Of a DNA stretch of 54,928 bases, positions 4,815-39,961 are shown in pieces (the stretch's first letter is position 1; every line of letters starts with the position of its first letter). The notes beneath the pieces were generated by a model. It was not told the DNA's origin. It searched no databases and saw only the letters and a program-made list of their open reading frames with translations. The stretch covers positions 1-54,928 of the forward strand of contig JAOAJY010000004.1 in NCBI GenBank assembly GCA_026413965.1, written 5' to 3'. This DNA comes from Candidatus Micrarchaeota archaeon (lineage in GTDB: Archaea > Micrarchaeota > Micrarchaeia > Anstonellales > Anstonellaceae). The position numbers and the translations under genes were made by a program.

Positions 4815-6626
4815 TCACATTTTCTCCAATGCCTCTATGCCAAGCAGGCCCATGGCATTCCGCATGGCAATCAGGGCTGCAGCATTTATCGCAAGCCTCA
4901 TCTGGCGCTTTTCTTCCTCCTGGCAGCCAATTATCGGGCATGCGTTGTAGAACTTGTTGTATGCAGTGGCAAGCTCAAGCGAATAGTCCGCAAGCAGGTG
5001 CGGCCTGAGCTGCTTAGCAGCATCCTGCACCACCAAGTCAAATGCCATTATTTTCTTCAAAAGCTCCTTTTCCTGGAGGGCCAAGTCTTTTGCGGAAGGC
5101 TTGCCCTCGCCGGCTTTGGAGAATATCTTGTGTGCGCGGGCGTGGGCGTACATCACATAAGGAGCGCTGTCGCCTTCCAAAGAAAGCGCCTCTTCCCATC
5201 TGAAAACTATCTTCTTCTCAGGAGTGGTCTTAAGCAAGGCAAATCTTATGCCGCCAGACGCAACTGCGGTGGCTATCTTCCCCCTTTCTGCCCCAACCAC
5301 ATCCTCCTTGATTTTTGATTCGGCTTTGACCAGCCCTTCAGAATAAAGCTCATCTGCTGTGTATCCTATCCATGTTCCCTGCCGCCCAGAAAATTTGGCA
5401 TCCTGGAGCCAAACATGCTCATATGACAAGTGGATGGAGTTTTCAGCCTCCTTGGCAAAACCTATCAGGCGCAGTATCTCCCTTATGGCCTTTTGCGGAT
5501 ATGCCTGCTCCATCCCAATCACATTTATCACTCTGGTGGCGCGCCCAAACCCCATTTTCCTTCCTTCATGGCTGCTCATGTAGCAATCATGCCCATTTGG
5601 CTGATGCATGAACCTTGAATAGGCAAATTCGCTTTTGATTATCCCAAACTTCCAAAGCTGGAAAATTACGTCCTTTCCTGTGTATGTGGCTGTCCCGTCG
5701 CTTCTTATCAGTATCTTGTCCGGCGACTCCATGCCTGAAAATTCTTTGCTTTGCAGCTTTGCCACCCAGCATCCTGCGTTCTTTCCCTCAGTTTCCTTGG
5801 AAATCGCATTGTTTGCTTTCAGAAGCTCCATGCCCTCCTGGAAAATCGTCCGCACTATGTCAGACTCAAATATAAGCACATCATGGTAAATCCCGAACTT
5901 GAACGCAGTCTCATATTGCGCTGCGACGCAGCTTTCCACAAGCTTTCGCGCCTCCTTTGCCTCCTTGCTTTCGCCATGCTCTATTGCTTTCAAAAGCTCG
6001 CGGACCTGCTTTTGGACATTTTCGTCAGATTCAAATCTTCTGGATACTTCCACATACTGCTCGCCCAGCCACAAGTCCAGTTTTCCAATAGGCTTCTTTC
6101 CCAGGTTCAAATATCCCCAAAAGCTTTGCGCAACTTGAAGCCCGAGGTCATCTATGTAATCAATCCTCTCAACATTCTCCCCTGAAAACTCCAAAATGCG
6201 GGCTACAGCATCCCCAAGAACCGCGTTGCGCAGATGGCCTATGTGCCAGGGCTTGTTCGGATTCACAGAGGGAAATTCCACAATTGTCTTGCCTTGCTTT
6301 TTTTGCCCCATCCCAAACCGTTCCTTTTCATTAAGAACGTGCGCAAGAAGCTGGCTATAAAACGCGTCTGAAAGGATGAAATTGACATACGGGCCGTCGG
6401 CTTTTGCGTAATCCACCCAGTCTGGCAGGAGGATTTTTCCAGCAAGCTCCCTTGCTTCCTCCGCAGGGCTTTTTCCATGCTTTTTTGCGGCATGAAAAGC
6501 CATTGAGGAGGCGACATCCCCAAACTGCCCTTTTGGGATGGCCAATGATGCCTCTGCCTGGCCGACATCGCATCCAGCCGCATCCGAAAGGGCTTTCGCA
6601 AGCCGAGCCCTCAACCGCAAGAACAT
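4815..6626 (-). CDS. argS: Arginine--tRNA ligase
   Basis: FPSVNPNKPWHIGHLRN (HIGH), RSDGTATY, EGDSAPYVMYAHAR and a C-terminal DALR-type domain; ATG 6626 follows a GAGGAG RBS. Confidence 0.97.
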   Translation of the reverse strand: MFLRLRARLAKALSDAAGCDVGQAEASLAIPKGQFGDVASSMAFHAAKKHGKSPAEEARELAGKILLPDWVDYAKADGPYVNFILSDAFYSQLLAHVLNEKERFGMGQKKQGKTIVEFPSVNPNKPWHIGHLRNAVLGDAVARILEFSGENVERIDYIDDLGLQVAQSFWGYLNLGKKPIGKLDLWLGEQYVEVSRRFESDENVQKQVRELLKAIEHGESKEAKEARKLVESCVAAQYETAFKFGIYHDVLIFESDIVRTIFQEGMELLKANNAISKETEGKNAGCWVAKLQSKEFSGMESPDKILIRSDGTATYTGKDVIFQLWKFGIIKSEFAYSRFMHQPNGHDCYMSSHEGRKMGFGRATRVINVIGMEQAYPQKAIREILRLIGFAKEAENSIHLSYEHVWLQDAKFSGRQGTWIGYTADELYSEGLVKAESKIKEDVVGAERGKIATAVASGGIRFALLKTTPEKKIVFRWEEALSLEGDSAPYVMYAHARAHKIFSKAGEGKPSAKDLALQEKELLKKIMAFDLVVQDAAKQLRPHLLADYSLELATAYNKFYNACPIIGCQEEEKRQMRLAINAAALIAMRNAMGLLGIEALEKM

Positions 6627-6664
6627 GCCAATACTCCTCAGCAAGCAGTTTTAACTGCAGCAGC

Positions 6665-7042
6665 CTACTTAAGAGCCTTGCGGGCAGCCGACTCATCCGC
6701 AGCTTTTATGGCAACCTCCACCAATCCCTTGCTTTTGGAGAGAAGATAAAGCGATTCTATGTCCACTCCTGCCTGCGCAAGCTTTCGCGTCACCTTGTAA
6801 AGCTCACCAGGGGCGTCGTTGAGCTTGATGATTATCACGTTTCCGGTTTTGAACGTGAAGCCTGCTTTGGTCAACGCTTTCTTTGCGGTCACGGTGTCTC
6901 CAGTTATTAGCCTAATCAGCCCCGAATCCCCAAGCCCTTGGGCAGAAATTGCCTCTATGTTCACGCCCGCGCTTCCAAGCAAGCCGCAGACTTTCGCAAG
7001 CACTCCGACCTTGTTCTCCGTTATAATGGTTATCTCCTCCAT
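6665..7042 (-). CDS. Stand-alone ACT-domain protein (two ACT repeats)
   Basis: ENKVGVLAKVCGLLGSAGVNIEAI and NDAPGELYKVTRKLAQAGVDIESL are tandem ACT signatures; GAGGGTGA RBS. Confidence 0.88.
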   Translation of the reverse strand: MEEITIITENKVGVLAKVCGLLGSAGVNIEAISAQGLGDSGLIRLITGDTVTAKKALTKAGFTFKTGNVIIIKLNDAPGELYKVTRKLAQAGVDIESLYLLSKSKGLVEVAIKAADESAARKALK

Positions 7043-7052
7043 CCAATCACCC

Positions 7053-7712
7053 TCAGCCCAAGGTAGGAAAAGCTGCCTTGAGGCCATTTATTATGAACTG
7101 CACTGCTATGGAGCACACCAGCAGCCCCATTATCTTCACCAGCGCAGATATGCCTTCTTGCCCAAGCTTTCGCTCTATGGTTGCTGAGAATTTCAGAACC
7201 AAAAAGTTTATTGCGCATGCTATGAATATGGCAGCCCAAAGCGCGATCTCAAACCACAAGTTCTTGGCTTGGCTTGCAAGCACCACAGTGGTGGTGATGG
7301 CTCCTGGGCCAGAAGTCATCGGTATGGCAAGAGGAACCACATAGACTTGCGCAGGAGAAGCCTGCAGGCCGCTTTGCTCAGATTTCGGGGGAAAAAGCAT
7401 CCTCATGCCAATCACCATCAGGATTGCCCCTCCTGCTATCCTGAACGAATCAATGGTTATCCCATATATTTGGAATATGAAAAATCCTGTCAGGGAAAAA
7501 AAGATAAGTACGCAGAATGCCACAAGCGCTGCCCGGAATGCAATCTTTGCTTTTTCTTCCGGCTTTTCATTTTTTGTGAGTGAAAGGTAGACTCCTATTG
7601 TTGAAAGAGGGTTGGTTATTGCAAGGACGGATATTAGGCATGTCGCAAAATAAGCGTAAATCTCCTCATTCATGCCAAGAATAGCCATGAAAAGTATAAA
7701 AGGCATTTCCAT
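7053..7712 (-). CDS. MarC family integral membrane protein
   Basis: ITNPL, FRIAGGAIL, VPLAIPMTSGPGAITT and KIMGLL motifs. Confidence 0.93.
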   Translation of the reverse strand: MEMPFILFMAILGMNEEIYAYFATCLISVLAITNPLSTIGVYLSLTKNEKPEEKAKIAFRAALVAFCVLIFFSLTGFFIFQIYGITIDSFRIAGGAILMVIGMRMLFPPKSEQSGLQASPAQVYVVPLAIPMTSGPGAITTTVVLASQAKNLWFEIALWAAIFIACAINFLVLKFSATIERKLGQEGISALVKIMGLLVCSIAVQFIINGLKAAFPTLG

Positions 7713-7777
7713 AATGCAACCGCGCTTTGGCTGTTCCAGCTTGCCCGCAAGCGCCAGCCAGCATCCAGATAAAGAGC

Positions 7778-8362
7778 TTATTGGGCCTTTATCCTGCTTT
7801 TAGCTTCTTGGGCAACCAAAGCAAATGCCGTCAGCAGCGCAAGTGCCTTCGCCAGCTCCGCAATTTCCATAAATGGCAAAGCTTGGCAGATAGCCATCGG
7901 CTCATTTGAAGGGTTGTCTGTCCCGCATATGACGTTCGCAGATGCCTCCCTTATGGCGTAAAGCAGCGCAAATGCCAGGTAAATTCTCCTTCCATGCTTC
8001 CTGTAAAGCGCGTATGCGATTGCTGAGGATGAAAGGATTACGAAAGCAGGCCCTCCCAGCATGAACATCACGGTCGGCACACCCTCCACGATTTTGGTCT
8101 GCTGGGGGCACAAGACGAAATCTATCAACGCGCATTTTTCCCAACCGCTTATCTGGAAAACCGGCAGCTTTCCTGTGTGGTAAAAGCTTCCTATTGCGCC
8201 AAAAACAACATGCCCAAGCTCATGGGCTGCGTATTCTGCGTATATGAGAGCCAAAAGCAGCGCCGCCCCTGCTGCCAAGGCAAAAATTGCCCTAAGCGCA
8301 ATCAATCTCCAAGGAGCCTTGCTTATTTTTATGGCTGCAAGCCTCATCAGCACCATCAGCAA
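7778..8362 (-). CDS. Membrane protein with HExxH motif (M50-like zinc metalloprotease, putative)
   Basis: Several TM segments, AAHELGHVVF at the end of TM1, a GGP motif and a later NVICGTD segment. Confidence 0.55.
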   Translation of the reverse strand: MLMVLMRLAAIKISKAPWRLIALRAIFALAAGAALLLALIYAEYAAHELGHVVFGAIGSFYHTGKLPVFQISGWEKCALIDFVLCPQQTKIVEGVPTVMFMLGGPAFVILSSSAIAYALYRKHGRRIYLAFALLYAIREASANVICGTDNPSNEPMAICQALPFMEIAELAKALALLTAFALVAQEAKSRIKAQ

Positions 8363-8390
8363 CAGGCTTCATGCCTATTTATTTTGCCTG

Positions 8391-8597
8391 CTATCTTTTG
8401 CTTTCATCAAGCCTGACTGTCATCAGCCTTTTTCGCCCGCAATTCCTGCACTCTATCTGGATGATTTTTGTTATTCTAAGCTCAGGCGAAAGGCACTTGT
8501 GGCAATAAGCATCTTTGAGCTCATCCTCCAGCTTCTTTTTCTTGCCATGCACCTCAACAGGCTTTTCGTCGCAGTCTATAATTGTCGGATTGTCCAT
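8391..8597 (-). CDS. Small zinc-ribbon protein (CxxC-x14-CxxC)
   Basis: 68 aa with CHKC and CRNC; ATG preceded by GATGGTG. Confidence 0.65.
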   Translation of the reverse strand: MDNPTIIDCDEKPVEVHGKKKKLEDELKDAYCHKCLSPELRITKIIQIECRNCGRKRLMTVRLDESKR

Positions 8598-8698
8598 AGC
8601 ACCATCTTGCCAATGCGCTGCAATCCTGCTTGCCCATCCTGCCTCATGCCTGCTGGCCTTCCTCAGAGCCCATTTCTTGCCTGCTTTCTGCCAGCATT

Positions 8699-8920
8699 CT
8701 AGTCATACCTTGTCCTCTCAGTGCATATTTTCTTTTCCCAGCTTTGCCGGTACTTTTCCTCAAGCATGGAGAATATCTCAATCGCGTCTTTTTTTGCCTG
8801 CTCTGAGCTTTCCCCCTCCACGCTGACCATCACATCCCCGTATCTTATTGTCACCGCTTTTCGGGTCGGAGGCGCGGGGGTTTTCGCGCCTTCTTTCTCT
8901 TCTTCCTCACTCATCGCCAT
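8699..8920 (-). CDS. Small hypothetical protein with acidic N-terminus
   Basis: M(A)MSEEEEKEGAKTPAPP...VTIRYGDVMVSVEGES...; a TTAAATAA TATA-like box ~25 nt upstream on the minus strand suggests a leaderless transcript. Confidence 0.6.
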   Translation of the reverse strand: MAMSEEEEKEGAKTPAPPTRKAVTIRYGDVMVSVEGESSEQAKKDAIEIFSMLEEKYRQSWEKKICTERTRYD

Positions 8921-8942
8921 CCAGCCTTTTTTGGGCATGAAA

Positions 8943-9063
8943 TTATTTAACATTTATGATGAAACCATTAACCGGCATAACAGAAATCGACTCCATTTTG
9001 GCAGAGGAATCGGCAGATTTTGTTCTCCCATTAGCTCCAAAGCTTTAAATTTAATCGGCATAA
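8943..9063. promoter_or_regulatory. Divergent promoter with repeated AAYCGGCA-type boxes
   Basis: TATA-like boxes at 8943-8950 (minus) and ~9044-9051 (plus). Repeats TAACCGGCATAA 8969-8980, ATTTTGGCAGAG 8995-9006, GAATCGGCAGAT 9007-9018, TAATCGGCATAA 9052-9063. Confidence 0.5.
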
Positions 9064-9085
9064 ATTTACTCGGGAGGTAGTTGGC

Positions 9086-9727
9086 TTGAGCCCAAACACT
9101 ACTCTGATATGCAGCTTCTATTCTTTTCAGCCAGTAGTGGCGTCCATCCACGCATTTTCTCCCTCAAAAATTGTCGCTGTCATTGCCGAAGGCTCGCTCA
9201 AAAAAGACCCGCATGTCAAAGAGGAATTCGAGCAGCTGGTCTCGGTTTTTGGGAAGGTCACCCAAATCACAAAAGAAGAGGTTGATGGCACAGACATTCT
9301 TGCGATTGCCAGGAAAGCAATTGAGCTTCTTGAGGCTGATGATTCTGAAAAAATAGTCAACATTTCTGGTGGCTGGAAGCTTCTTGCGCAAGGGCTGCTT
9401 TATGGCTGCTATGCCAGGCCTCACCTTGTCTCAAAGATAGTGTGCAACAACATTGACAAAAGCGAAGAGGAGCTTGTTGATTTGCCCAAGTTCAGCTTTG
9501 AGCTTTCAGAAGGTAAAAAGGCGGTTCTTGAGGCAATAGCCTCCCTTTCCTCAAAAGGCGAAGGAAAGCTGGATGTCCAGGATATCGCAAAGAAAGCAGA
9601 AAAAAGCGATGTGATGGCCTATCAGCACATTGATTTCCTCAAAAGGATGAATTATGTTGACAACAACAACCGCATAACCGTGGCGGGCAAGCTGGCGTTG
9701 CTTTGGAGAGACGAAGGGAAAAAATGA
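9086..9727 (+). CDS. Csa3-like CARF domain plus winged-HTH transcriptional regulator
   Basis: Rossmann-like N-terminus (TLICSF..., KIVNISGGWKLLAQGLLYGCY, the CARF S-G-G-x-R/K motif) fused to a C-terminal wHTH (LDVQDIAKKAEKSDVMAYQHIDFLKRMNYV...ITVAGKLALL); GGGAGGT RBS, TTG start. Confidence 0.8.
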   Translation: MSPNTTLICSFYSFQPVVASIHAFSPSKIVAVIAEGSLKKDPHVKEEFEQLVSVFGKVTQITKEEVDGTDILAIARKAIELLEADDSEKIVNISGGWKLLAQGLLYGCYARPHLVSKIVCNNIDKSEEELVDLPKFSFELSEGKKAVLEAIASLSSKGEGKLDVQDIAKKAEKSDVMAYQHIDFLKRMNYVDNNNRITVAGKLALLWRDEGKK

Positions 9728-9771
9728 AAAACAAAGCGCGTCAGTTTATAAGGGCGGTTCAATTTTGAAAA

Positions 9772-9873
9772 GGGGCCGTGGGCTAACCTGGTATGCTACT
9801 AGGTTCGGGAAAATTGGCAAATCTGCCGATTTTGGAAAACCTAGCGATCTGTGTTCAAATCACAGCGGCCCCA
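9772..9873 (+). tRNA. tRNA-Pro(CGG) with 29-nt intron at 37/38 (9810-9838)
   Basis: Acceptor GGGGCCG/CGGCCCC, anticodon stem CTAGG/CCTAG around TT-CGG-G, T arm CTGTG-TTCAAAT-CACAG. Canonical BHB: TTCG pairs with TGGA, two 3-nt bulges, 9-bp intron stem AAATTGGCA/TGCCGATTT. TTTATAAG box upstream; CCA not encoded. Confidence 0.93.
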
Positions 9874-10518
9874 TCTTATTCCAACTTTCGGGCAAAGCTT
9901 CTCAATGGGGCAGCGGTTGCAGGCAGGTCTTCTTGCCACGCATACCGCCCTTCCGTGGTGGACAAACAAATCGGATATCTTAAGCCAATATTTTTTTGGA
10001 AGAAGCCTCATTAGGTCTTGTTCAATTTTTTCAGGGGACGAGTGCTTTGTCCATCCAAGCAGGCGGCTTATTCTGGTCGCATGGGTGTCCACAGGGACTC
10101 CCTCTATTATGCCATATGCGTTGCCCAGCACAATATTTGCGGTTTTTCTTCCAACTCCGGGCAACTCCAGCATCTGCCGCATGCTCTTTGGCACCCTGCC
10201 GCCGTGCTTTTCGGCTATGATGCGGCATGCCTCCTTTATGTGCCTTGCCTTGCTTTTGTAAAATCCTGCCGAGCGTATGCATGCCTCAAGCTCTCGCAAA
10301 TCAGCGCCTGCGAAATCCTCTGCAGTCTTGTACCTTGAAAACAAGGCAGGAGTTATCATGTTCACCCGCGCGTCTGTGCATTGGGCAGACAAGATGGTGG
10401 CCACAAGAAGCTGGAGCGGAGTTTTATAGTCCAAAGAGCATTTTGCCTCAGGATAGGCGGCAAGGAGCTTTTTCACTATCTTCAAGGCGCGCCTTCTTTT
10501 CTCCTGCTGGCTTTCCAT
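9841..10518 (-). CDS. nth: Endonuclease III (HhH-GPD DNA glycosylase with 4Fe-4S cluster)
   Basis: LLVATILSAQCTDARVN, LPGVGRKTAN, PVDTH, and the Cys cluster CVARRPACNRCPIEKLC. Confidence 0.97.
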   Translation of the reverse strand: MESQQEKRRRALKIVKKLLAAYPEAKCSLDYKTPLQLLVATILSAQCTDARVNMITPALFSRYKTAEDFAGADLRELEACIRSAGFYKSKARHIKEACRIIAEKHGGRVPKSMRQMLELPGVGRKTANIVLGNAYGIIEGVPVDTHATRISRLLGWTKHSSPEKIEQDLMRLLPKKYWLKISDLFVHHGRAVCVARRPACNRCPIEKLCPKVGIRWGRCDLNTDR

Positions 10519-10568
10519 CGTCCATGTTCCATCGGCACATTTTAAAGAAGTTAATCCTACAATAATGC

Positions 10569-10839
10569 GGGCCCGTAGCTCAGTTTGGATAGAGCGGCAG
10601 ACTTCTATCCCTAGGGGGAACGAAGAAAAACCTTCTGTCCCCCTGAGGGTTCACCCCCTGCCTGAAAGCAGAAGGGTGTGGAAGCTGTGGGGAACGAAGA
10701 AAAACCTTCTGTCCCCCTGAGGGTTCACCCCCTGCCTGAAAGCAAAAAGAAATGGATTTGCTGGAATGATAATGGGCTTGCCCTCTTGCCCAGCACGGAA
10801 GCAATCTGAAGGTCGTGGGTTCAAATCCCACCGGGCCCG
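10569..10839 (+). tRNA. tRNA-Arg(TCT) with 196-nt intron at 37/38 (10608-10803)
   Basis: 5' exon GGGCCCGTAGCTCAGTTTGGATAGAGCGGCAGACTTCTA and 3' exon ATCTGAAGGTCGTGGGTTCAAATCCCACCGGGCCCG give a 75-nt cloverleaf. BHB central helix CTTC (32-35) pairs with GAAG (10798-10801), with 3-nt bulges. TTTTAAAG box upstream. Confidence 0.9.
10615..10744 (+). repeat. Two identical 56-nt direct repeats inside the tRNA-Arg intron
   Basis: GGGGAACGAAGAAAAACCTTCTGTCCCCCTGAGGGTTCACCCCCTGCCTGAAAGCA at 10615-10670 and 10689-10744 (period 74 nt). Confidence 0.97.
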
Positions 10840-10914
10840 CTTGCAAGCGGTTGGATTTTATATATTTTGAGCCCATATTGGCTTGGCTATTTTGGGAAGC
10901 GGAAGGTAGGTTTT

Positions 10915-32282: not shown

Positions 32283-33881
32283 ATGCTGCTCTCAGATTAC
32301 GCAAAATCAGCGCCCCATTCTCCAGGCGTCTACAAATTTTTGTCGGCAGAAGGCGCAGTCCTTTATGTAGGCAAAGCGAAGGATTTGCGGAGCCGGCTCT
32401 CAAGCTACTTCTCAGGGGCAGCCACTGACAGAGCCCGCCAGATGCTTTCCCAAGCAAAATCCATAGAGGTTATAGTGACTGACAATGAGGCAGAGGCCCT
32501 CATTTTGGAAAACAGCCTGATAAAAGAGCATTTCCCGAAATACAACATACAGCTCAAAGACAATGAAAAATACACATATATTCTGGTCACAGACGAGGCT
32601 TTTCCCCGCATGCTTCTGGTCCGGAGAAGCAGGGGAGGGCGGATAAAAATGCGGGGAAGCGTTTATGGGCCATTTGTTTCCGGCTCAGCCTATGTGCTAG
32701 TCTCCTCCACTCTCCGCAAGCTCTTCAAGATACGCACCTGCAAGGTGGGGCAAGGAAAGCCCTGCCTCCAGTACCATCTCGGCTTCTGCATGGGGCCTTG
32801 CGCAGGCCTTGTCACTCCTGAAGAGTATGGAAAGCAGGTGGAAAAGCTCAAGGAGGTCCTGTCTGGAGGCAAGAAGCTTGAGCAACTGCTTGAGGAGCTC
32901 CAAAGCGAGATGCTGTCTGCCTCAAAAATGAGGCAATTTGAGAGGGCTATTGAGCTGAGGAATGCCATAAAGTCCCTGTCATCCCTTCTTGAAAAGCAGA
33001 AAATGGAGAGCAGAAGCGAGGCAGACGAAGACTATGTCTCCTTTGCTGAAAGCGGAGGCAATGTCTTAGTCCAGATTTTCAGGCAGGTTGGCGGTGTCAT
33101 AAAGGACAGGAAAAGGTTTTCCATACCCTCCGCTGTTTCTGGAAGCCCTCTTTCTGAGTTTTTGGCCCGCTTTTATGAGGCAGAGAGGATACCGCGAAAG
33201 ATATATGTTGAGCAGCCTTTTGAGGACATGGCGCTAGTCGAAAGCTTCCTGTCTGGCAAAAGAGGGGGCCCTGTATCAATAGCAGTGCCTGAAAAAGGAG
33301 ACAAAAAGAAGCTTCTTGAGCTTCTCCGCAAAAACATAATGCTTGAAATAAGCAAAGACTCCAACCCCGCCCTAATTGAGCTCCAAAATGCGCTTTCTCT
33401 CCCGCGCCTGCCAAAAACCATAGAATGCTTCGACGTTTCCAATCTGCAAAGCTCCAATATAGTGGGCGCAATGTCCCAATTTGTGAACGGATTCCCCAAA
33501 AAATCCTCGTATAGGAGATTCAAGATAAGGTCCATAGAGCAGCAAAATGACTTCGCTGCCATCTGGGAAATAGTCTTCAGAAGATACTCCCGCCTGAAAG
33601 CGGAAGGCTCCTCTCTTCCTGATTTGGTTGTGGTGGATGGCGGGCCTGGCCAGCTTAATGCGGCAATCTCAGCAATCTCTGAGCTTGGGCTTTCAATTCC
33701 GTGCGTGTCACTTGCGAAGAAGGAAGAAGAGATTTACCTTCCAGGCAAAAGAGTTCCAATAAAGCTTCCAAAATCGTCTGAAGCTTTGCATGTGCTTCAG
33801 TTTGCCAGGGATGAGGCGCACCGTTTCGGAGTTTCCTACCACCGTCTCCTGAGAAGAAAAAAAACCAGCCTGAAGCTTTAG
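32283..33881 (+). CDS. uvrC: Excinuclease ABC subunit C (no C-terminal HhH domain)
   Basis: GIY-YIG (PGVY...YVGKAKDL...EAL), Cys-rich region, UVR domain, RNase H-like ([22 protein letters not shown]). Confidence 0.96.
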
Positions 33882-36709
33882 CCATGCGTTTCCTTCAGCA
33901 CCCTTTTCAAGTACTCGCCGGTGTAGCTGGCTTTGTTTCCGGCAATTTCTTCCGGTGTCCCGCATGCCACAATCTCCCCTCCATCTTCTCCTCCTTCCGG
34001 CCCCAAATCAATTATCCAGTCAGCCGACTTTATGACATCCAAGTTGTGCTCAATGACTATAACGCTGTTGCCCCTGTCAGTCAGCCTTTGCAGGACAGCC
34101 AGAAGCTTTGACACATCCGCAAAATGCAGGCCCGTGGTTGGCTCATCCAGTATATAGACGGTGGAGCCGGTGTCCCTTCTTGAAAGCTCGGCGGCCAGCT
34201 TTATCCTTTGCGCTTCGCCTCCAGACAAGGTGGTTGCTGGCTGCCCAAGCGATATGTAGCCCAGCCCAACATCATTCATGGTCTCCAGCTTGTTTTTGAC
34301 CGAAGGTATGCTCTGGAAGAATCGCAAAGCCTCCTCCACGCTCATGGACAAAACCTCGTGGATGTTTTTGCCTTTGTACCTTATCTGAAGCGTTTCGCTG
34401 TCATATCTTTTGCCGCCGCATTCCTCGCAAGTGACATAAACATCAGGCAGGAATTGCATCTCTATCCGCTTGACTCCGTCGCCCTCGCAAGCCTGGCACC
34501 TGCCTTTTTGGACATTGAAAGAGAACTGCCCAGGGTCATAGCCTCTTGCCCGGGCTTCAGGCACGCTTGCGAAAAGCTCCCTTATCGGGGTGAACGCTCC
34601 GATGTAGGTTGCTGGATTTGACCTAGGGGTTCTTCCGATAGGGGACTGGTCTATGCATATGACGTCCCTCACCAGCTCCACTCCCTCCAGCCTGTCAAAC
34701 TTTCCAGGCTCCTCTTTTGATTGGTGGAGGTGCTTCATGAGAGCCTTGTAGAGAATCTCATTAACAAGAGTGGATTTTCCTGAGCCTGACACGCCTGTTA
34801 TGCAAGTGAACAGCCCAAGCGGGATTTTTGCATCTATTCCCTTTAGGTTGTTCTCCCTTGCCCCCCTTATTGTCAGCCATTGCTTTGGCTTCCTCCTTAT
34901 TTTAGGCGTAGGTATGGCCATTTCCCTGCGGAGATAGGCTCCTGTGAGCGACTCCTTGCTTTTCTCAATATCTTCGGGCCTGCCTATCGCTATCACCTTG
35001 CCGCCATGCACCCCTGCCCCTGGCCCAAGGTCGACCATGAAATCTGCATTTCTCATGGTCTCCTCATCATGCTCAACAACTATCAAAGTGTTCCCCAAGT
35101 CCCTCAGCGACTTCAATGTCGAAATCAGCTTGTCGTTGTCCCTCTGGTGCAGCCCAATTGAAGGCTCATCAAGGACATACAGCACGCCTGTGAGGTTCGC
35201 CCCTATCTGCGTCGCCAGCCTTATCCTCTGCGCTTCGCCCCCCGAAAGCGTGCCAGTTGTCCTGGAAAGGGACAAGTAGCCGACGCCGACATTAAGAAGG
35301 AAATCCAGGCGCGATATTATCTCGCGCAAGATAGGGCGGGCTATCGCCTCTTCTGTCTTGCTGAGCGCAAGGGAGGTGAAGAACCCATAGGCTGACTCAA
35401 TAGGCATTTCTGTCACTTCAATGATGCTTTTTCCTCCAACTTTCACAGCCAGCACTTCTGGGATGAGCCGCTTGCCCTTGCATGAGGGGCATGGAAGTTC
35501 CCTCATGTATCTTTCCATCTCCTGCCGCCTGTACTCTGATTTCGTCTGCCTGTATAGCCTCTCCAAGTTCGGTATCACTCCCTCAAACCTTGCCATTCCC
35601 TCATATGTGGATTCCCCGTCTTTGGATTGGATGTGGTACTGTATTTTTTCATCGCTTCCGTACAAGACCGCCTTTTTCGCCTCTTCTGAGAGCACATTGA
35701 ACTGCGTTTTTAGGCTGAAGCCGTATTTTTCCCCCAGCCCTGCAAGCAGCTGCAGATAGTATCCCCCAATAGCGCTGTTCTTCCAAGGCTCAATCGCTCC
35801 CTCCTCAAATGTTTTGGTTTTGTCAGGTATCACCAAGTCCGGGTCAAATTCTATCTTCACCCCTAGCCCATGGCACTCTGGGCATGCGCCATATGGAGCG
35901 TTGAAAGAGAACATTCTTGGCTGCAGCTCACCGACAGAGACGCCGCATGTTGGGCAGGAGTTCTTCTGGGAGAAAAGAAGCTCTTTCTTGTCAATCCCAA
36001 CAATCACTAGGCCGTCGGCGCTTTCCTTGATTGCGGTTTTCACCGCTTCAAGAAGGCGCTGCCTGTTTTGCTGGCTGGCGGAGAATCTGTCCACAACCAC
36101 CTCTATGGTGTGCTTTTTGTTTTTGTCAAGCTTTGGTATCTTGCTTTCAAGCTCCATAGGAAAGCCATTCACCCGCACTCTTGAGTAGCCTTTTTGCCTC
36201 AGCTCATCAAACAGCTTGTCGTAAGCCCCTTTTTTTCCGCGAACCACCGGGGAGATTATCTGCACAATCTTTCCGTCTGCCTGCTGCAGCACGCTGTTTG
36301 CAATCTGCTCCGTTGTCTGGGTGGCGATTCTCTCTCCGCATTTCGGGCAGTGGGGTATGCCTATCCTTGCGAAAAGCAGCCTCAAGTAGTCATATATCTC
36401 AGTAGTGGTCCCCACAGTTGAGCGCGGGTTTTTGCTTGTGGTTTTCTGCTCAATTGATATCGCAGGCGACAGCCCTTCAATAGAGTCAACATCAGGCTTG
36501 TTCATAAGCCCAAGGAATTGCCTGGCATACGCAGAAAGCGACTCGACATACCTTCTTTGCCCTTCCGCATAAATAGTGTCAAATGCCAAGGTGGATTTGC
36601 CTGAGCCCGAAAGGCCAGTGATGACTGTGAGCGTGTTTCTGGGTATCTCAAGGGAAATGTTTTTCAGGTTGTGCTCCCTGGCGCCTTTTATCACAATTTT
36701 GTCCTGCAT
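33878..36709 (-). CDS. uvrA: Excinuclease ABC subunit A
   Basis: [10 protein letters not shown], two ABC modules (GLSGSGKS; GVSGSGKS), LSGGEAQR twice, Zn fingers. Confidence 0.98.
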
Positions 36710-36803
36710 GGTTATCACTTGCAGCTTCAAGCGCGTTTTTTAGAAAAATAAAGTTTTATATTGGCGCCTAGTGAAAGTTAGCGACTCTGCTGGAAGGTGA
36801 GTT

Positions 36804-37953: not shown

Positions 37954-39918
37954 TCACATGGTCTGCCTTCGCCTTTTCTTTTTGCCGCTTTCTCCCTCTC
38001 CCAATTTCTTCTTTATCTCCAAAAGCTGGTCCCTAAGCTCAATTGCGCGCTCAAAGTCCAAGTCCTCTGCAGCCTTCTGCATCTCCATCTCCAAGTTTAT
38101 GGCAAGCGCTCTCAGCTCCTTGTAGCTTTCCGCCTTCTTCTCCTCCTCAATCTCAAGCTGCTTGCTGATGCCTTTTGAGACTGTTTTTGGGGTTATGCCG
38201 TGCCTCCGGTTGAACTCTTCCTGGATTCTCCTTCTCCTTTCAGTTTCTGCTACAGCCTTCTCTATCGCCTCCGTCCTCCTGTCGCAATAGAGTATGACTG
38301 TTCCATTCGCGTTTCGCGCAGCCCTCCCCATAGTCTGTATCAGGGAAGTTTCGTTTCTCAAGAAGCCCTCCTTGTCCGCGTCCAGTATCGCTACAAGGGA
38401 TACTTCTGGTATGTCCAGCCCCTCCCTCAAAAGGTTGATGCCCACCAGGCAGTCAAATTCCCCAAGCCGCAATTTCCTTATAAGCTCTGTCCGCTGTATT
38501 GTCTCAATCTCCGAGTGCAAATATCTGGCTTTGACATCGTGGCGATTAAGATAGTCGGTCAAATCCTCAGCCATCCTTTTTGTCAGAGTGGTCACAAGGG
38601 TTCTCTCCCCCCTCTCCGCCCTCGTCCGCACCTCGTTCATCAAGTCATCAATCTGCCCATCTGTCTTCCTGATGTATATTTTCGGGTCCAAAAGCCCGGT
38701 TGGGCGCACAAGCTGCTCCACTATCTGGAAAGACTTTTCCCTTTCATAAGGTCCAGGCGTTGCCGAAACAAATATCGTGTTTTTGAAGAATTTCTCCACC
38801 TCCTCAAACTTCAAGGGGCGGTTGTCGTATGCGCAAGGCAGCCTGAAGCCATAATCCACAAGGTTCTTTTTTCGCGTGTAGTCTCCATGGTACATGCCAT
38901 GAAGCTGCGGTATTGTGACATGCGACTCATCCACAACAATCAGCGAATCTTCAGGGAGGAAGTCCATGAGGGTGTAAGGCGGCTGCCCGGGAGACCTGCC
39001 GTCAAAATGCCTTGAGTAGTTCTCAATGCCTTTGCAGTAGCCCAGCTCTTCAATCAGCTCCAAATCGTATTCTGTGCGCGTCTTTAGCCTATGCGCCTCC
39101 AAATCAGGAAGCTCAGGAAGCCTTTGCTTGAGCTCTTCGCGTATGTCCCTCAAGGCCTTTTCCCTTATCGAAAGCGGGACGATGTAATGCTTGGCTGGGA
39201 AGATGCGTATCTCTGGAAGCTCGCGTATTTTTGCCGCGCTGACAGGCTCAAGAAGCATTATCTTGTCCACCTTGTCCTCATTGAGCACAATCCGGATTAT
39301 CTCGTCTTGGTATCCTGGAAGCACATCAATCGTGTCCCCTCTTGCGCGGACGGTGCCGGCAGCAAGCTCTGTGTCATTGCGCTCATACTGGATGGATATC
39401 AGCGATGCAATCAGAGATGAGCGCGGCATCAGCGCTCCTTTGCTGACCAGAACAGACTGCTCAAGCCATTCTTTTGGAGAGCCCAGCCCATATATGCATG
39501 AGACTGTGGCAACAATTATTGACGGTCCTGGGGAAAGGAGATATGCCGTTGATTGGAGGCGCAGCCTCTCAATCTTCTCGTTTATCTGCGCGTCCTTTTC
39601 TATATACGTGTCTGTTTGTGGTATGTAGCTTTCTGGCTGGTAGTAGTCGTAGTAGGACACGAAATAGCCTACTTTGTTTTTTGGGAAGAATTGCTTGAAT
39701 TCTGAGTAAAGCTGGGCTGCAAGGGTCTTGTTGTGGGAAATCACAAGGCAGGTTTTTCCAGCCTTTGCTATTACGTTTGCTATTGTGAATGTTTTGCCAG
39801 AGCCAGTCACTCCCAAAAGAGTCTGGTTTCCCCCTCTTTCTGCCCCCTTCAGCAGCTTAGCAATTGCCTCTGGCTGGTCTCCTGCCGGCTTGAAAGGCGC
39901 AACAAGCTCGTATCCCAT
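37954..39918 (-). CDS. uvrB: Excinuclease ABC subunit B
   Basis: GDQPEA, GVTGSGKT, YYDYYQPE beta-hairpin, VDESH, GINLLREGLD, GRAARN, C-terminal UVR domain. Confidence 0.98.
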   Translation of the reverse strand: MGYELVAPFKPAGDQPEAIAKLLKGAERGGNQTLLGVTGSGKTFTIANVIAKAGKTCLVISHNKTLAAQLYSEFKQFFPKNKVGYFVSYYDYYQPESYIPQTDTYIEKDAQINEKIERLRLQSTAYLLSPGPSIIVATVSCIYGLGSPKEWLEQSVLVSKGALMPRSSLIASLISIQYERNDTELAAGTVRARGDTIDVLPGYQDEIIRIVLNEDKVDKIMLLEPVSAAKIRELPEIRIFPAKHYIVPLSIREKALRDIREELKQRLPELPDLEAHRLKTRTEYDLELIEELGYCKGIENYSRHFDGRSPGQPPYTLMDFLPEDSLIVVDESHVTIPQLHGMYHGDYTRKKNLVDYGFRLPCAYDNRPLKFEEVEKFFKNTIFVSATPGPYEREKSFQIVEQLVRPTGLLDPKIYIRKTDGQIDDLMNEVRTRAERGERTLVTTLTKRMAEDLTDYLNRHDVKARYLHSEIETIQRTELIRKLRLGEFDCLVGINLLREGLDIPEVSLVAILDADKEGFLRNETSLIQTMGRAARNANGTVILYCDRRTEAIEKAVAETERRRRIQEEFNRRHGITPKTVSKGISKQLEIEEEKKAESYKELRALAINLEMEMQKAAEDLDFERAIELRDQLLEIKKKLGEGESGKKKRRRQTM

Positions 39919-39961
39919 ATCAACCTTCCCAAAAAGCGCAATCGCTACGGAGGAGTCCAAT

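Follow-up and report, generated by a model that had tools for sequence, protein, structure and literature searches.

What does a regulator of the Csa3 family do when it is encoded outside any CRISPR-cas locus? Csa3 is a textbook CRISPR accessory, typically encoded in or beside a type I-A CRISPR-cas locus, with cyclic tetra-adenylate (cA4) from type III systems as its known ligand and with cas and DNA-repair genes as its known targets. The locus analyzed here lies in a 54,928-nt stretch (the window) of a Micrarchaeota assembly from a hot-spring metagenome, which comprises 770 kb in 28 contigs and is 87% complete. In this stretch a gene for a protein that combines a CARF domain with a winged helix-turn-helix (wHTH) domain is transcribed divergently from three genes, and an initial annotation had proposed that this may be an orphan, nucleotide-responsive regulator and a candidate for an undescribed protein system. 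The observation itself was confirmed, as the list of open reading frames (ORFs) contains the divergent four-gene layout at the positions given by that annotation, whereas the interpretation was supported in part. The locus consists of the following elements:

9086-9727, + strand: Csa3-family CARF-wHTH regulator, 213 aa, TTG start
8954-9085, no strand: shared control region, 132 bp between the divergent genes
8699-8953, - strand: small mildly acidic protein "acid84", 84 aa as called
8391-8597, - strand: Zn-ribbon protein, 68 aa, CHKC...CRNC
7778-8362, - strand: HExxH membrane protein, 194 aa, HELGH, four predicted membrane helices
9772-9873, + strand: intron-bearing tRNA (Rfam tRNA 46.5 bits; ARAGORN -i, 29-nt intron)

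We put the probability at about one half that the regulator is a CRISPR-independent local one-component switch, a working Csa3 member outside any cas locus. The family assignment, the conservation of the putative ligand pocket, a repeated element in the shared control region and the gene neighborhoods of homologues bear on this reading.

The 213-aa protein is a true member of the Csa3 family (CARF3-wHTH) and thus belongs to a known family. Over its full length it matched the NCBIfam model TIGR01884 (Csa3) with 75.2 bits at a cut-off of 60.2, and PADLOC CARF3 covered residues 4-206 with an E value of 4e-41. The Pfam family Csa3_N stayed below threshold (18.9 vs 27), as did HFX_2341_N, and the match to Pfam HTH_5 was weak; support for the wHTH came from a profile match spanning the wHTH of PH1932 and that of the Csa3 structure 6w11. 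The CARF domain comprises about residues 1-135, with the NISGGWK motif at residues 92-98, and the wHTH about residues 140-205, so that there is no room for a third domain in a protein of only 213 aa. An AlphaFold (AF2) model built on 44 homologues reached a pLDDT of 92.9 and could be aligned with Csa3 over the full length (224 columns). Using this model, the best Foldseek matches were the Csa3 structures 2wte, 6wxq and 6w11 from S. solfataricus (E 1.5e-8 to 4.7e-7), and all matches with E<1e-3 (46/46) were CARF proteins. The initial annotation had stated that a structure search without CARF would speak against its assignment. Foldseek returned CARF and Csa3 proteins, and the assignment as CARF plus wHTH stands because the N-terminal domain is CARF by hidden Markov model and by fold, with TIGR01884, PADLOC CARF3 and the fold search all in agreement. 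Sequence matches of the regulator to TALE-repeat entries of the PDB (E about 1e-6) were rejected; they are sums of sub-significant repeats with no single significant stretch.

Judged from residue conservation, the putative ligand pocket of the regulator is under selection. Among the 44 homologues F11, Y12, S13, F14 and P16 as well as N92, S94, G95, G96, W97 and K98 are invariant or nearly so. In Csa3Sso, cA4 is bound by motif 1 (residues 8-14, with G9, F10, N11 and F14) and motif 2 (residues 94-99, with G96 and R98) (PMC8844856), and the most conserved residues of the regulator appear to cluster in the counterparts of these two loops. For motif 2 the regulator reads S94-G95-G96-W97-K98 compared with G-M-R98 in Csa3Sso, with a Lys for the Arg. 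The region of motif 1 reads F11-Y12-S13-F14-Q15-P16; the aromatic residues are kept and the glycine is missing. The presumed ligand need not be cA4.

The following elements lie in and at the edge of the shared control region:

8968-8980 and 9051-9063: 13-nt boxes TTAAYCGGCATAA, 83 bp apart, candidate operators
9039-9050: proximal B recognition element (BRE)/TATA of the regulator gene, AAAGCTTTAAAT, overlapped by the second box
8937-8960: promoter-like core AAAnTATTTAAC-NN-TTATGR, which travels with the regulator gene

The two exact copies of TTAAYCGGCATAA in the 770-kb genome are both located in this region, and the only site with one mismatch lies inside a coding region. The core AAAnTATTTAAC could be aligned in all seven close homologues (7/7, 62-80% identity of the regulator), irrespective of the gene on the divergent side. 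At the position of the first box the 80%-identical homologues show a perfect TTAAC-N3-GTTAA palindrome, and the more distant regulators of the genomes G012 and G002 have TCTAC...GTAGA palindromes instead. Members of the Csa3 family bind a palindromic site in promoters, and for the locus we infer that the boxes and palindromes are operators. A dimer of the regulator would bind the two TTAAYCGGCATAA boxes within the 132 bp; one of them overlies the TATA of the regulator gene itself, a hint at autoregulation, and the other adjoins what appears to be the conserved promoter core. Binding of a small nucleotide-like ligand would then alter transcription of the divergent operon, whose output would be the small acidic protein, the Zn-ribbon protein and an outward-facing membrane protein resembling zinc peptidases.

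The locus was compared with 61 relatives, 23 of them genomes of the same genus. Sampling covered about 25 loci of the regulator and 13 of the HExxH gene, and for the regulator all ORFs were compared within 7-16 kb per homologue from relatives and metagenome contigs. HExxH relatives within the phylum were collected by a phylum-wide profile search and exact look-ups. Two of the 13 HExxH loci were cut by contig ends, and at seven of the 11 assessable loci, from at least four lineages, a CARF3-wHTH gene is located at most 5 kb from the HExxH gene (the window, L037, G012, G005, G054:C3, G386 and L058). At the metagenome locus L037 the regulator is 80% identical, the acidic protein 81% and the Zn-ribbon protein 73%. 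The divergent genes of L037 begin with a 71-aa gene (called on the near-identical L038), a 65-aa and a 102-aa gene, continue with the acidic and the Zn-ribbon gene and end with a 147-aa gene, a second small Zn-ribbon gene, the HExxH gene, an exo/endo-phosphatase, a HAD and an MBL/RMMBL nuclease gene. Overlapping subsets of this type of cluster were found in the same-genus genomes G012, G017, G005, G002 and G007, and the small proteins keep 56-81% identity even next to a regulator with no more than 32%. In G054 (another family of the order), in G386 (another family of the class) and on the metagenome contig L058 (28% GC), too, a regulator faces a run of small ORFs with the HExxH protein at its end; the genes in between differ. 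The three genes that the initial annotation had called a cassette do not make up a fixed unit and are the reduced remnant of a longer, variable cluster rather than a discrete system.

The conserved linkage to the divergent genes, which the initial annotation had expected, applies to the HExxH gene at seven of 11 loci but not to four more distant HExxH members, which have no CARF gene nearby. The neighbors at these four loci are integrases, genes of restriction-modification, an HNH nuclease or small ORFs in a provirus-like run. From the comparison of linked and distant loci, the HExxH family is cargo of islands or mobile elements, of which the subfamily nearest to the window travels with the regulator. 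In G009, a genome of the same genus with 100% completeness, the flanks (MarC on one side, tRNA/Nth on the other) are the same and the cassette is absent; the regulator is present as a pseudogene with five in-frame stops.

Two further genes were noticed beside regulators. In three same-genus genomes the first divergent gene encodes about 199 aa of an FtsZ/tubulin GTPase domain only (Pfam Tubulin, E 1.7e-15), and in G022 a 541-aa FtsZ-like version is fused to ankyrin-like repeats. The short versions are located as follows:

L022, 5309-5908, - strand: short FtsZ-like gene
L023, 6603-7205, - strand: short FtsZ-like gene
L035, 8474-9073, + strand: short FtsZ-like gene

At L033 (G012:C7, 7070-7312, - strand) a full-length CARF-wHTH gene with only 32% identity is closely followed, on its downstream side, by a stand-alone wHTH ORF of 80 aa, which shares 48-60% identity with the window regulator's C-terminal domain. 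This ORF is either what is left of a regulator that was replaced or a small DNA-binding protein in its own right.

The gene downstream of the regulator differs from homologue to homologue. In close homologues it follows on the same strand after 20-40 nt, is a different one each time and is usually defence-like:

L037: 1357-aa SF1 helicase with MTES_1575 restriction-endonuclease domain, then HARE-HTH/PDDEXK and an MmeI-type enzyme
L052: RmuC, then an M78/DUF4411 pair
L054: PDDEXK_4 protein
L041: DUF4357 and methyltransferase
L039: MBL nuclease
G046, G022 and G054: Schlafen/AlbA_2 ATPases

The window has nothing but the tRNA at this place. Since close relatives have the regulator at the head of variable nuclease and restriction genes, the locus is best read as a reduced control point of a defence or stress island. 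Its downstream position is empty, with the tRNA coming next, and of the divergent cluster just the tail is left.

The HExxH protein comes from a family of four-helix membrane proteins that is uncatalogued and predicted to be zinc-peptidase-like. It matched no family in Pfam (E<=0.1), NCBIfam, PADLOC or PHROG. The family comprises 144 cluster representatives (E<=1e-3) among 1.8e9 proteins, typically with about 190 aa, and is rare in the phylum (4/401 sampled genomes). Invariant are H47, E48, G50 and H51 of the HExGH motif and D149 within CGTDN, and P86, G104, N143, C146, G147, T148 and N150 are nearly so. The AF2 model (pLDDT 80) consists of four long helices and a small beta region and gave no significant fold match in the PDB, where the site-2 protease 3b4r ranked 19th (E 3.8, TM 0.31). 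According to the positive-inside rule, applied to the sequence, both termini and the RKHGRR loop would be cytoplasmic. This would bring HExxH and CGTDN together on the outside, with the putative metal site directed outward. One distant family member showed a sub-threshold M50 match at its HExxH motif (E 0.0017).

Two distant or modified members were recorded separately. At L059 (9001-9630) an HExxH gene stands between a tyrosine integrase and nine small ORFs, and a 1060-aa MTBMA_p00010-like protein as well as a Dam methylase are among the neighbors (5521-8670 and 9645-10898); the region resembles an integrated archaeal element. At L042 (G386:C23, 3089-4327, - strand) the HExxH module is fused to a C-terminal extension with a second HExxH-like motif, HECAH; this extension has further membrane helices and matched no Pfam family.

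The description of the first divergent protein as acidic is correct, but only in a mild sense (pI 5.1-5.6, with an SEEEE run). Its conserved core comprises residues 28-84, and the true start is therefore probably the ATG at 8920 (73 aa). Homologues with 56-81% identity were found in G012, G017, G007 and at L037. No family in Pfam, NCBIfam, PADLOC or PHROG was detected for acid84, and nothing usable was obtained from these databases for the three cassette proteins and the extra small proteins of L037. The Zn-ribbon protein is strongly conserved, with 67-75% identity across the genus, and its gene is present in 12 of the 61 relatives. In G003 and G016 it is found in the context of the S13-S4-S11-RpoD-L18e-L13-S9 operon and looks like a housekeeping gene; the protein could be a small factor of transcription or translation that is specific to the lineage. 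The homologues in this context are 67-69% identical:

L045 (G003:C3), 7102-7317: Zn-ribbon homologue
L046 (G016:C2), about 7005-7196: Zn-ribbon homologue

A number of observations weigh against a local switch. The boxes TTAAYCGGCATAA are not kept in the 80%-identical homologues, and in homologues with 62-79% identity the divergent side is taken by different genes, among them those for a YdjM-type membrane protein, an Hjc/Mrr-like nuclease, TIR proteins and a Cdc48-like AAA ATPase. The most regular partner of the closest homologues is the variable nuclease or restriction cargo, which is absent in the window. Four more distant HExxH loci have no CARF neighbor, and the Zn-ribbon gene lies directly 3' of rpoN in G003 and G016, both of which are without the regulator. 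Much of the recurrence falls within one genus and could be inherited synteny. Within the pocket, characterized Csa3 proteins share a motif-1 glycine that the regulator is missing, and the regulator has Lys where they have Arg98. As no cyclase was found, the idea of a nucleotide signal comes from membership in the family. Finally, the locus appeared in 0 RNA-seq runs, and its sole occurrence was in one hot-spring DNA metagenome.

The CRISPR context of the regulator differs between the window and the genome. In the window a k-mer scan detected no CRISPR array, and no Cas family was among the PADLOC matches of the four locus proteins and 39 further ORFs; the earlier statement that the window contains no cas gene, array or cyclase was borne out. 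A position in or beside a CRISPR-cas locus, as is usual for Csa3, is thus not seen in the 55-kb window, and this is a feature of context and not of family. The term orphan fits the window but not the genome, in which arrays with the 37-nt repeat GTTTCAATCCTTGTTTTTCTGGATGTTGAGTTGCAAT are present on three other contigs together with a Cas6b fragment:

C28:45-375 (contig start): CRISPR array
C21:112238-112368 (contig end): CRISPR array
C19:402-672 (672-bp contig): CRISPR array
C19:1-387, ahead of the array: Cas6b C-terminal fragment, Pfam Cas6b_C 100.8 bits

The assembly, at 87% completeness, contains nothing else of the cas operon. In this incomplete assembly a six-frame search found neither a Cas10 palm domain (E<=1) nor Cas1, and neither a SMODS CD-NTase (PF18144) nor a DAC domain (PF02457) at E<=1. 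The nucleotide-messenger part of the initial annotation did not gain from this search for Cas10, CD-NTase and DisA, as no cyclase was found that could serve as a source. The survey of the relatives covered Cas6b and Cas10. Here the regulator is present in 17 of 61 and Cas10 in six of 61; three genomes have both, always on different contigs, and 14 of the 17 regulator carriers are without Cas10. Within the genus the regulator occurs in 7/23 and Cas10 in 0/23 genomes. Among the 61 relatives the co-occurrence of regulator and Cas10 was not significant (Fisher p = 0.13-0.34), and Cas6b was detected only in the genome of the window (G000) and in the regulator-negative G033. From this distribution of Cas10 and regulator, the regulator family is largely independent of type III CRISPR. 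As for the proposed independence from CRISPR, most carriers of the regulator are without Cas10, but the genome of the window itself carries CRISPR.

These arrays leave room for another explanation, namely a conventional CRISPR regulator that controls cas genes or CRISPR leaders elsewhere in the genome from afar, with the neighbors being incidental. The missing cas operon makes a type III module possible, and there are precedents in Csa3a and Csa3b of the Sulfolobales and in MM_0565 of Methanosarcina mazei: Csa3 proteins bind cas promoters (PMC8844856), and the type I-B-associated MM_0565 binds array leaders (PMC7465815). Nevertheless, this is decidedly unlikely, since among the 17 regulator carriers Cas6b is restricted to this genome and Cas10 to three, on other contigs, and the TTAAYCGGCATAA box was not found in the array flanks on C19, C21 and C28. 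Doubtful as well is the view that no regulon exists, the gene order being inherited in a shrinking genome and the regulator a leftover on the way to the decay seen in G009. The varying neighbor sets of close homologues, the housekeeping-like appearance of the Zn-ribbon gene elsewhere and the HAD and MBL genes, which are equally persistent neighbors with no obvious link, would fit this view, and G009 demonstrates that the regulator is dispensable. Yet the window regulator keeps an intact frame, its pocket motifs do not vary among the 44 homologues, the shared control region carries a repeated box that is unique in the genome, and the regulator decayed in a genome of the genus that lacks the cassette at this locus. 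Moreover, the adjacency of CARF and HExxH genes recurs in different families of the class and on a 28%-GC contig with otherwise different genes.

The tRNA, 45 nt from the regulator, and the integrases and the provirus-like small-ORF run beside distant HExxH members would be in line with a remnant of a mobile element or provirus inserted at the tRNA, in which the wHTH protein is the repressor and the small genes and the peptidase are cargo, e.g. for superinfection exclusion. Archaeal elements typically carry strings of small Zn-ribbon ORFs. We regard this origin as highly improbable, because no integrase, att-like direct repeat or compositional break was found in the window, no PHROG match reached a meaningful level, and the cluster occurs in one conserved context, with the HAD and MBL genes, across several genomes. 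The local switch can also be extended. The regulator and the HExxH protein would then form the heart of a module in Micrarchaeota that is triggered by a ligand and independent of CRISPR, in which the CARF pocket senses an infection or stress signal not made by Cas10 and switches on the outward-facing membrane zinc peptidase with its small Zn-ribbon and acidic partners as an abortive-infection or surface-remodelling output, joined by nuclease and restriction cargo in fuller versions. This extension is unlikely in our estimation. As to the undescribed protein system of the initial annotation, the regulator belongs to a known family, here with a non-canonical, largely CRISPR-independent role, its recurring partner, the HExxH membrane protein, belongs to an uncatalogued one, and the cassette is not a discrete system.

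The surroundings of the locus consist of housekeeping genes: MarC, an ACT-domain protein and ArgRS flank it at one end, endonuclease III, UPF0147 and the PolD small subunit at the other. The tRNA that was said to abut the cassette exists but adjoins the regulator, as it begins 45 nt past the regulator's stop codon. We read it as Pro(CGG) under the canonical 37/38 intron placement; ARAGORN assigns it to Leu(CAA) with a non-canonical placement. A second tRNA at 10569-10839 (+ strand) contains a 196-nt intron built of a tandem duplication and shows a weak C/D-box snoRNA-like Rfam match (snoR41, 26 bits). Default ARAGORN and a whole-window Rfam scan at gathering thresholds reported no tRNA, whereas focused Rfam and the intron mode of ARAGORN detected both; archaeal tRNAs with introns readily escape default search settings. 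A MADS-like defence system in the window was rejected, because the mad3, mad8 and mad2 matches of PADLOC are cross-matches of the housekeeping UvrA and UvrB genes:

33881-36730 and 37957-39960, - strand: UvrA/UvrB cross-matches (mad3 E 8e-104; mad8, PbeA, mREase_IV)

Elsewhere in the assembly, contig C17 (806 bp) has a high GC content and 66-nt tandem repeats, compared with about 50% GC in the rest of the genome, and is probably a binning contaminant.

In the window and across a clade of Micrarchaeota the sensor pocket of Csa3 is under strong selection, in genomes without detectable Cas10 and beside genes other than cas. If the reading as a local switch is correct, archaea of the DPANN group would have a CARF ligand or signal source other than type III CRISPR, CARF-wHTH proteins would act as general defence or stress switches, much like the WYL regulators of bacteria, and for a new family of membrane HExxH proteins, which occurs in mobile and defence surroundings, there would be a first regulatory connection open to testing. 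Archaea of this group have been reported to be poor in CRISPR-Cas (PMC12988326), which raises the question of how they sense infection. The window is a reduced and less informative instance of this arrangement, with the cargo position empty and three genes of the divergent cluster left.

Compared with Csa3a and Csa3b of Saccharolobus/Sulfolobus (Sso1445; 2WTE, 6W11, 6WXQ), the window regulator has the same CARF and wHTH architecture and the same fold, and the N-x-S-G-G-x-K loop of motif 2 is kept. In contrast, it is only 12-13% identical, carries Lys for the invariant Arg98 and has a motif 1 without glycine. Its gene lies outside a type I-A cas locus next to small proteins and a membrane HExxH protein, and most genomes with this type of regulator are without a Cas10 to make cA4. 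MM_0565 is likewise a CARF-wHTH protein; it is a dimeric DNA binder from a type I-B host, and its main transcriptional target is not the cas operon (PMC7465815). The host of the window regulator is also of the Cas6b type, as judged from the fragment. MM_0565, however, is encoded at a I-B locus and binds the leaders, whereas the window gene and the arrays are on different contigs and the candidate box was not found in the array flanks.

The domains CARF and WYL have been paired as ligand-binding regulators of defence systems, and every CARF family has members unlinked to CRISPR-Cas (PMC4012209). In functional terms the window regulator resembles the WYL regulators BrxR and CapW, as in its close homologues a regulator made of a ligand sensor and a wHTH heads interchangeable genes of the defence type. 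The sensor of the window regulator is CARF and not WYL, no WYL family being among the Pfam matches, the host is an archaeon and the downstream position is empty. Like membrane zinc metallopeptidases whose HExxH lies within or beside a membrane helix, such as the site-2 protease of family M50 (3B4R), the HExxH protein of the window, a putative peptidase, carries its motif on a helix that continues a transmembrane segment and has an invariant Asp on a later loop. It differs from this protease in having no M50 profile match and no significant fold match, in HExGH and CGTDN instead of HExxH and LDG in transmembrane helices, and in a predicted site that faces outward rather than lying within the membrane.

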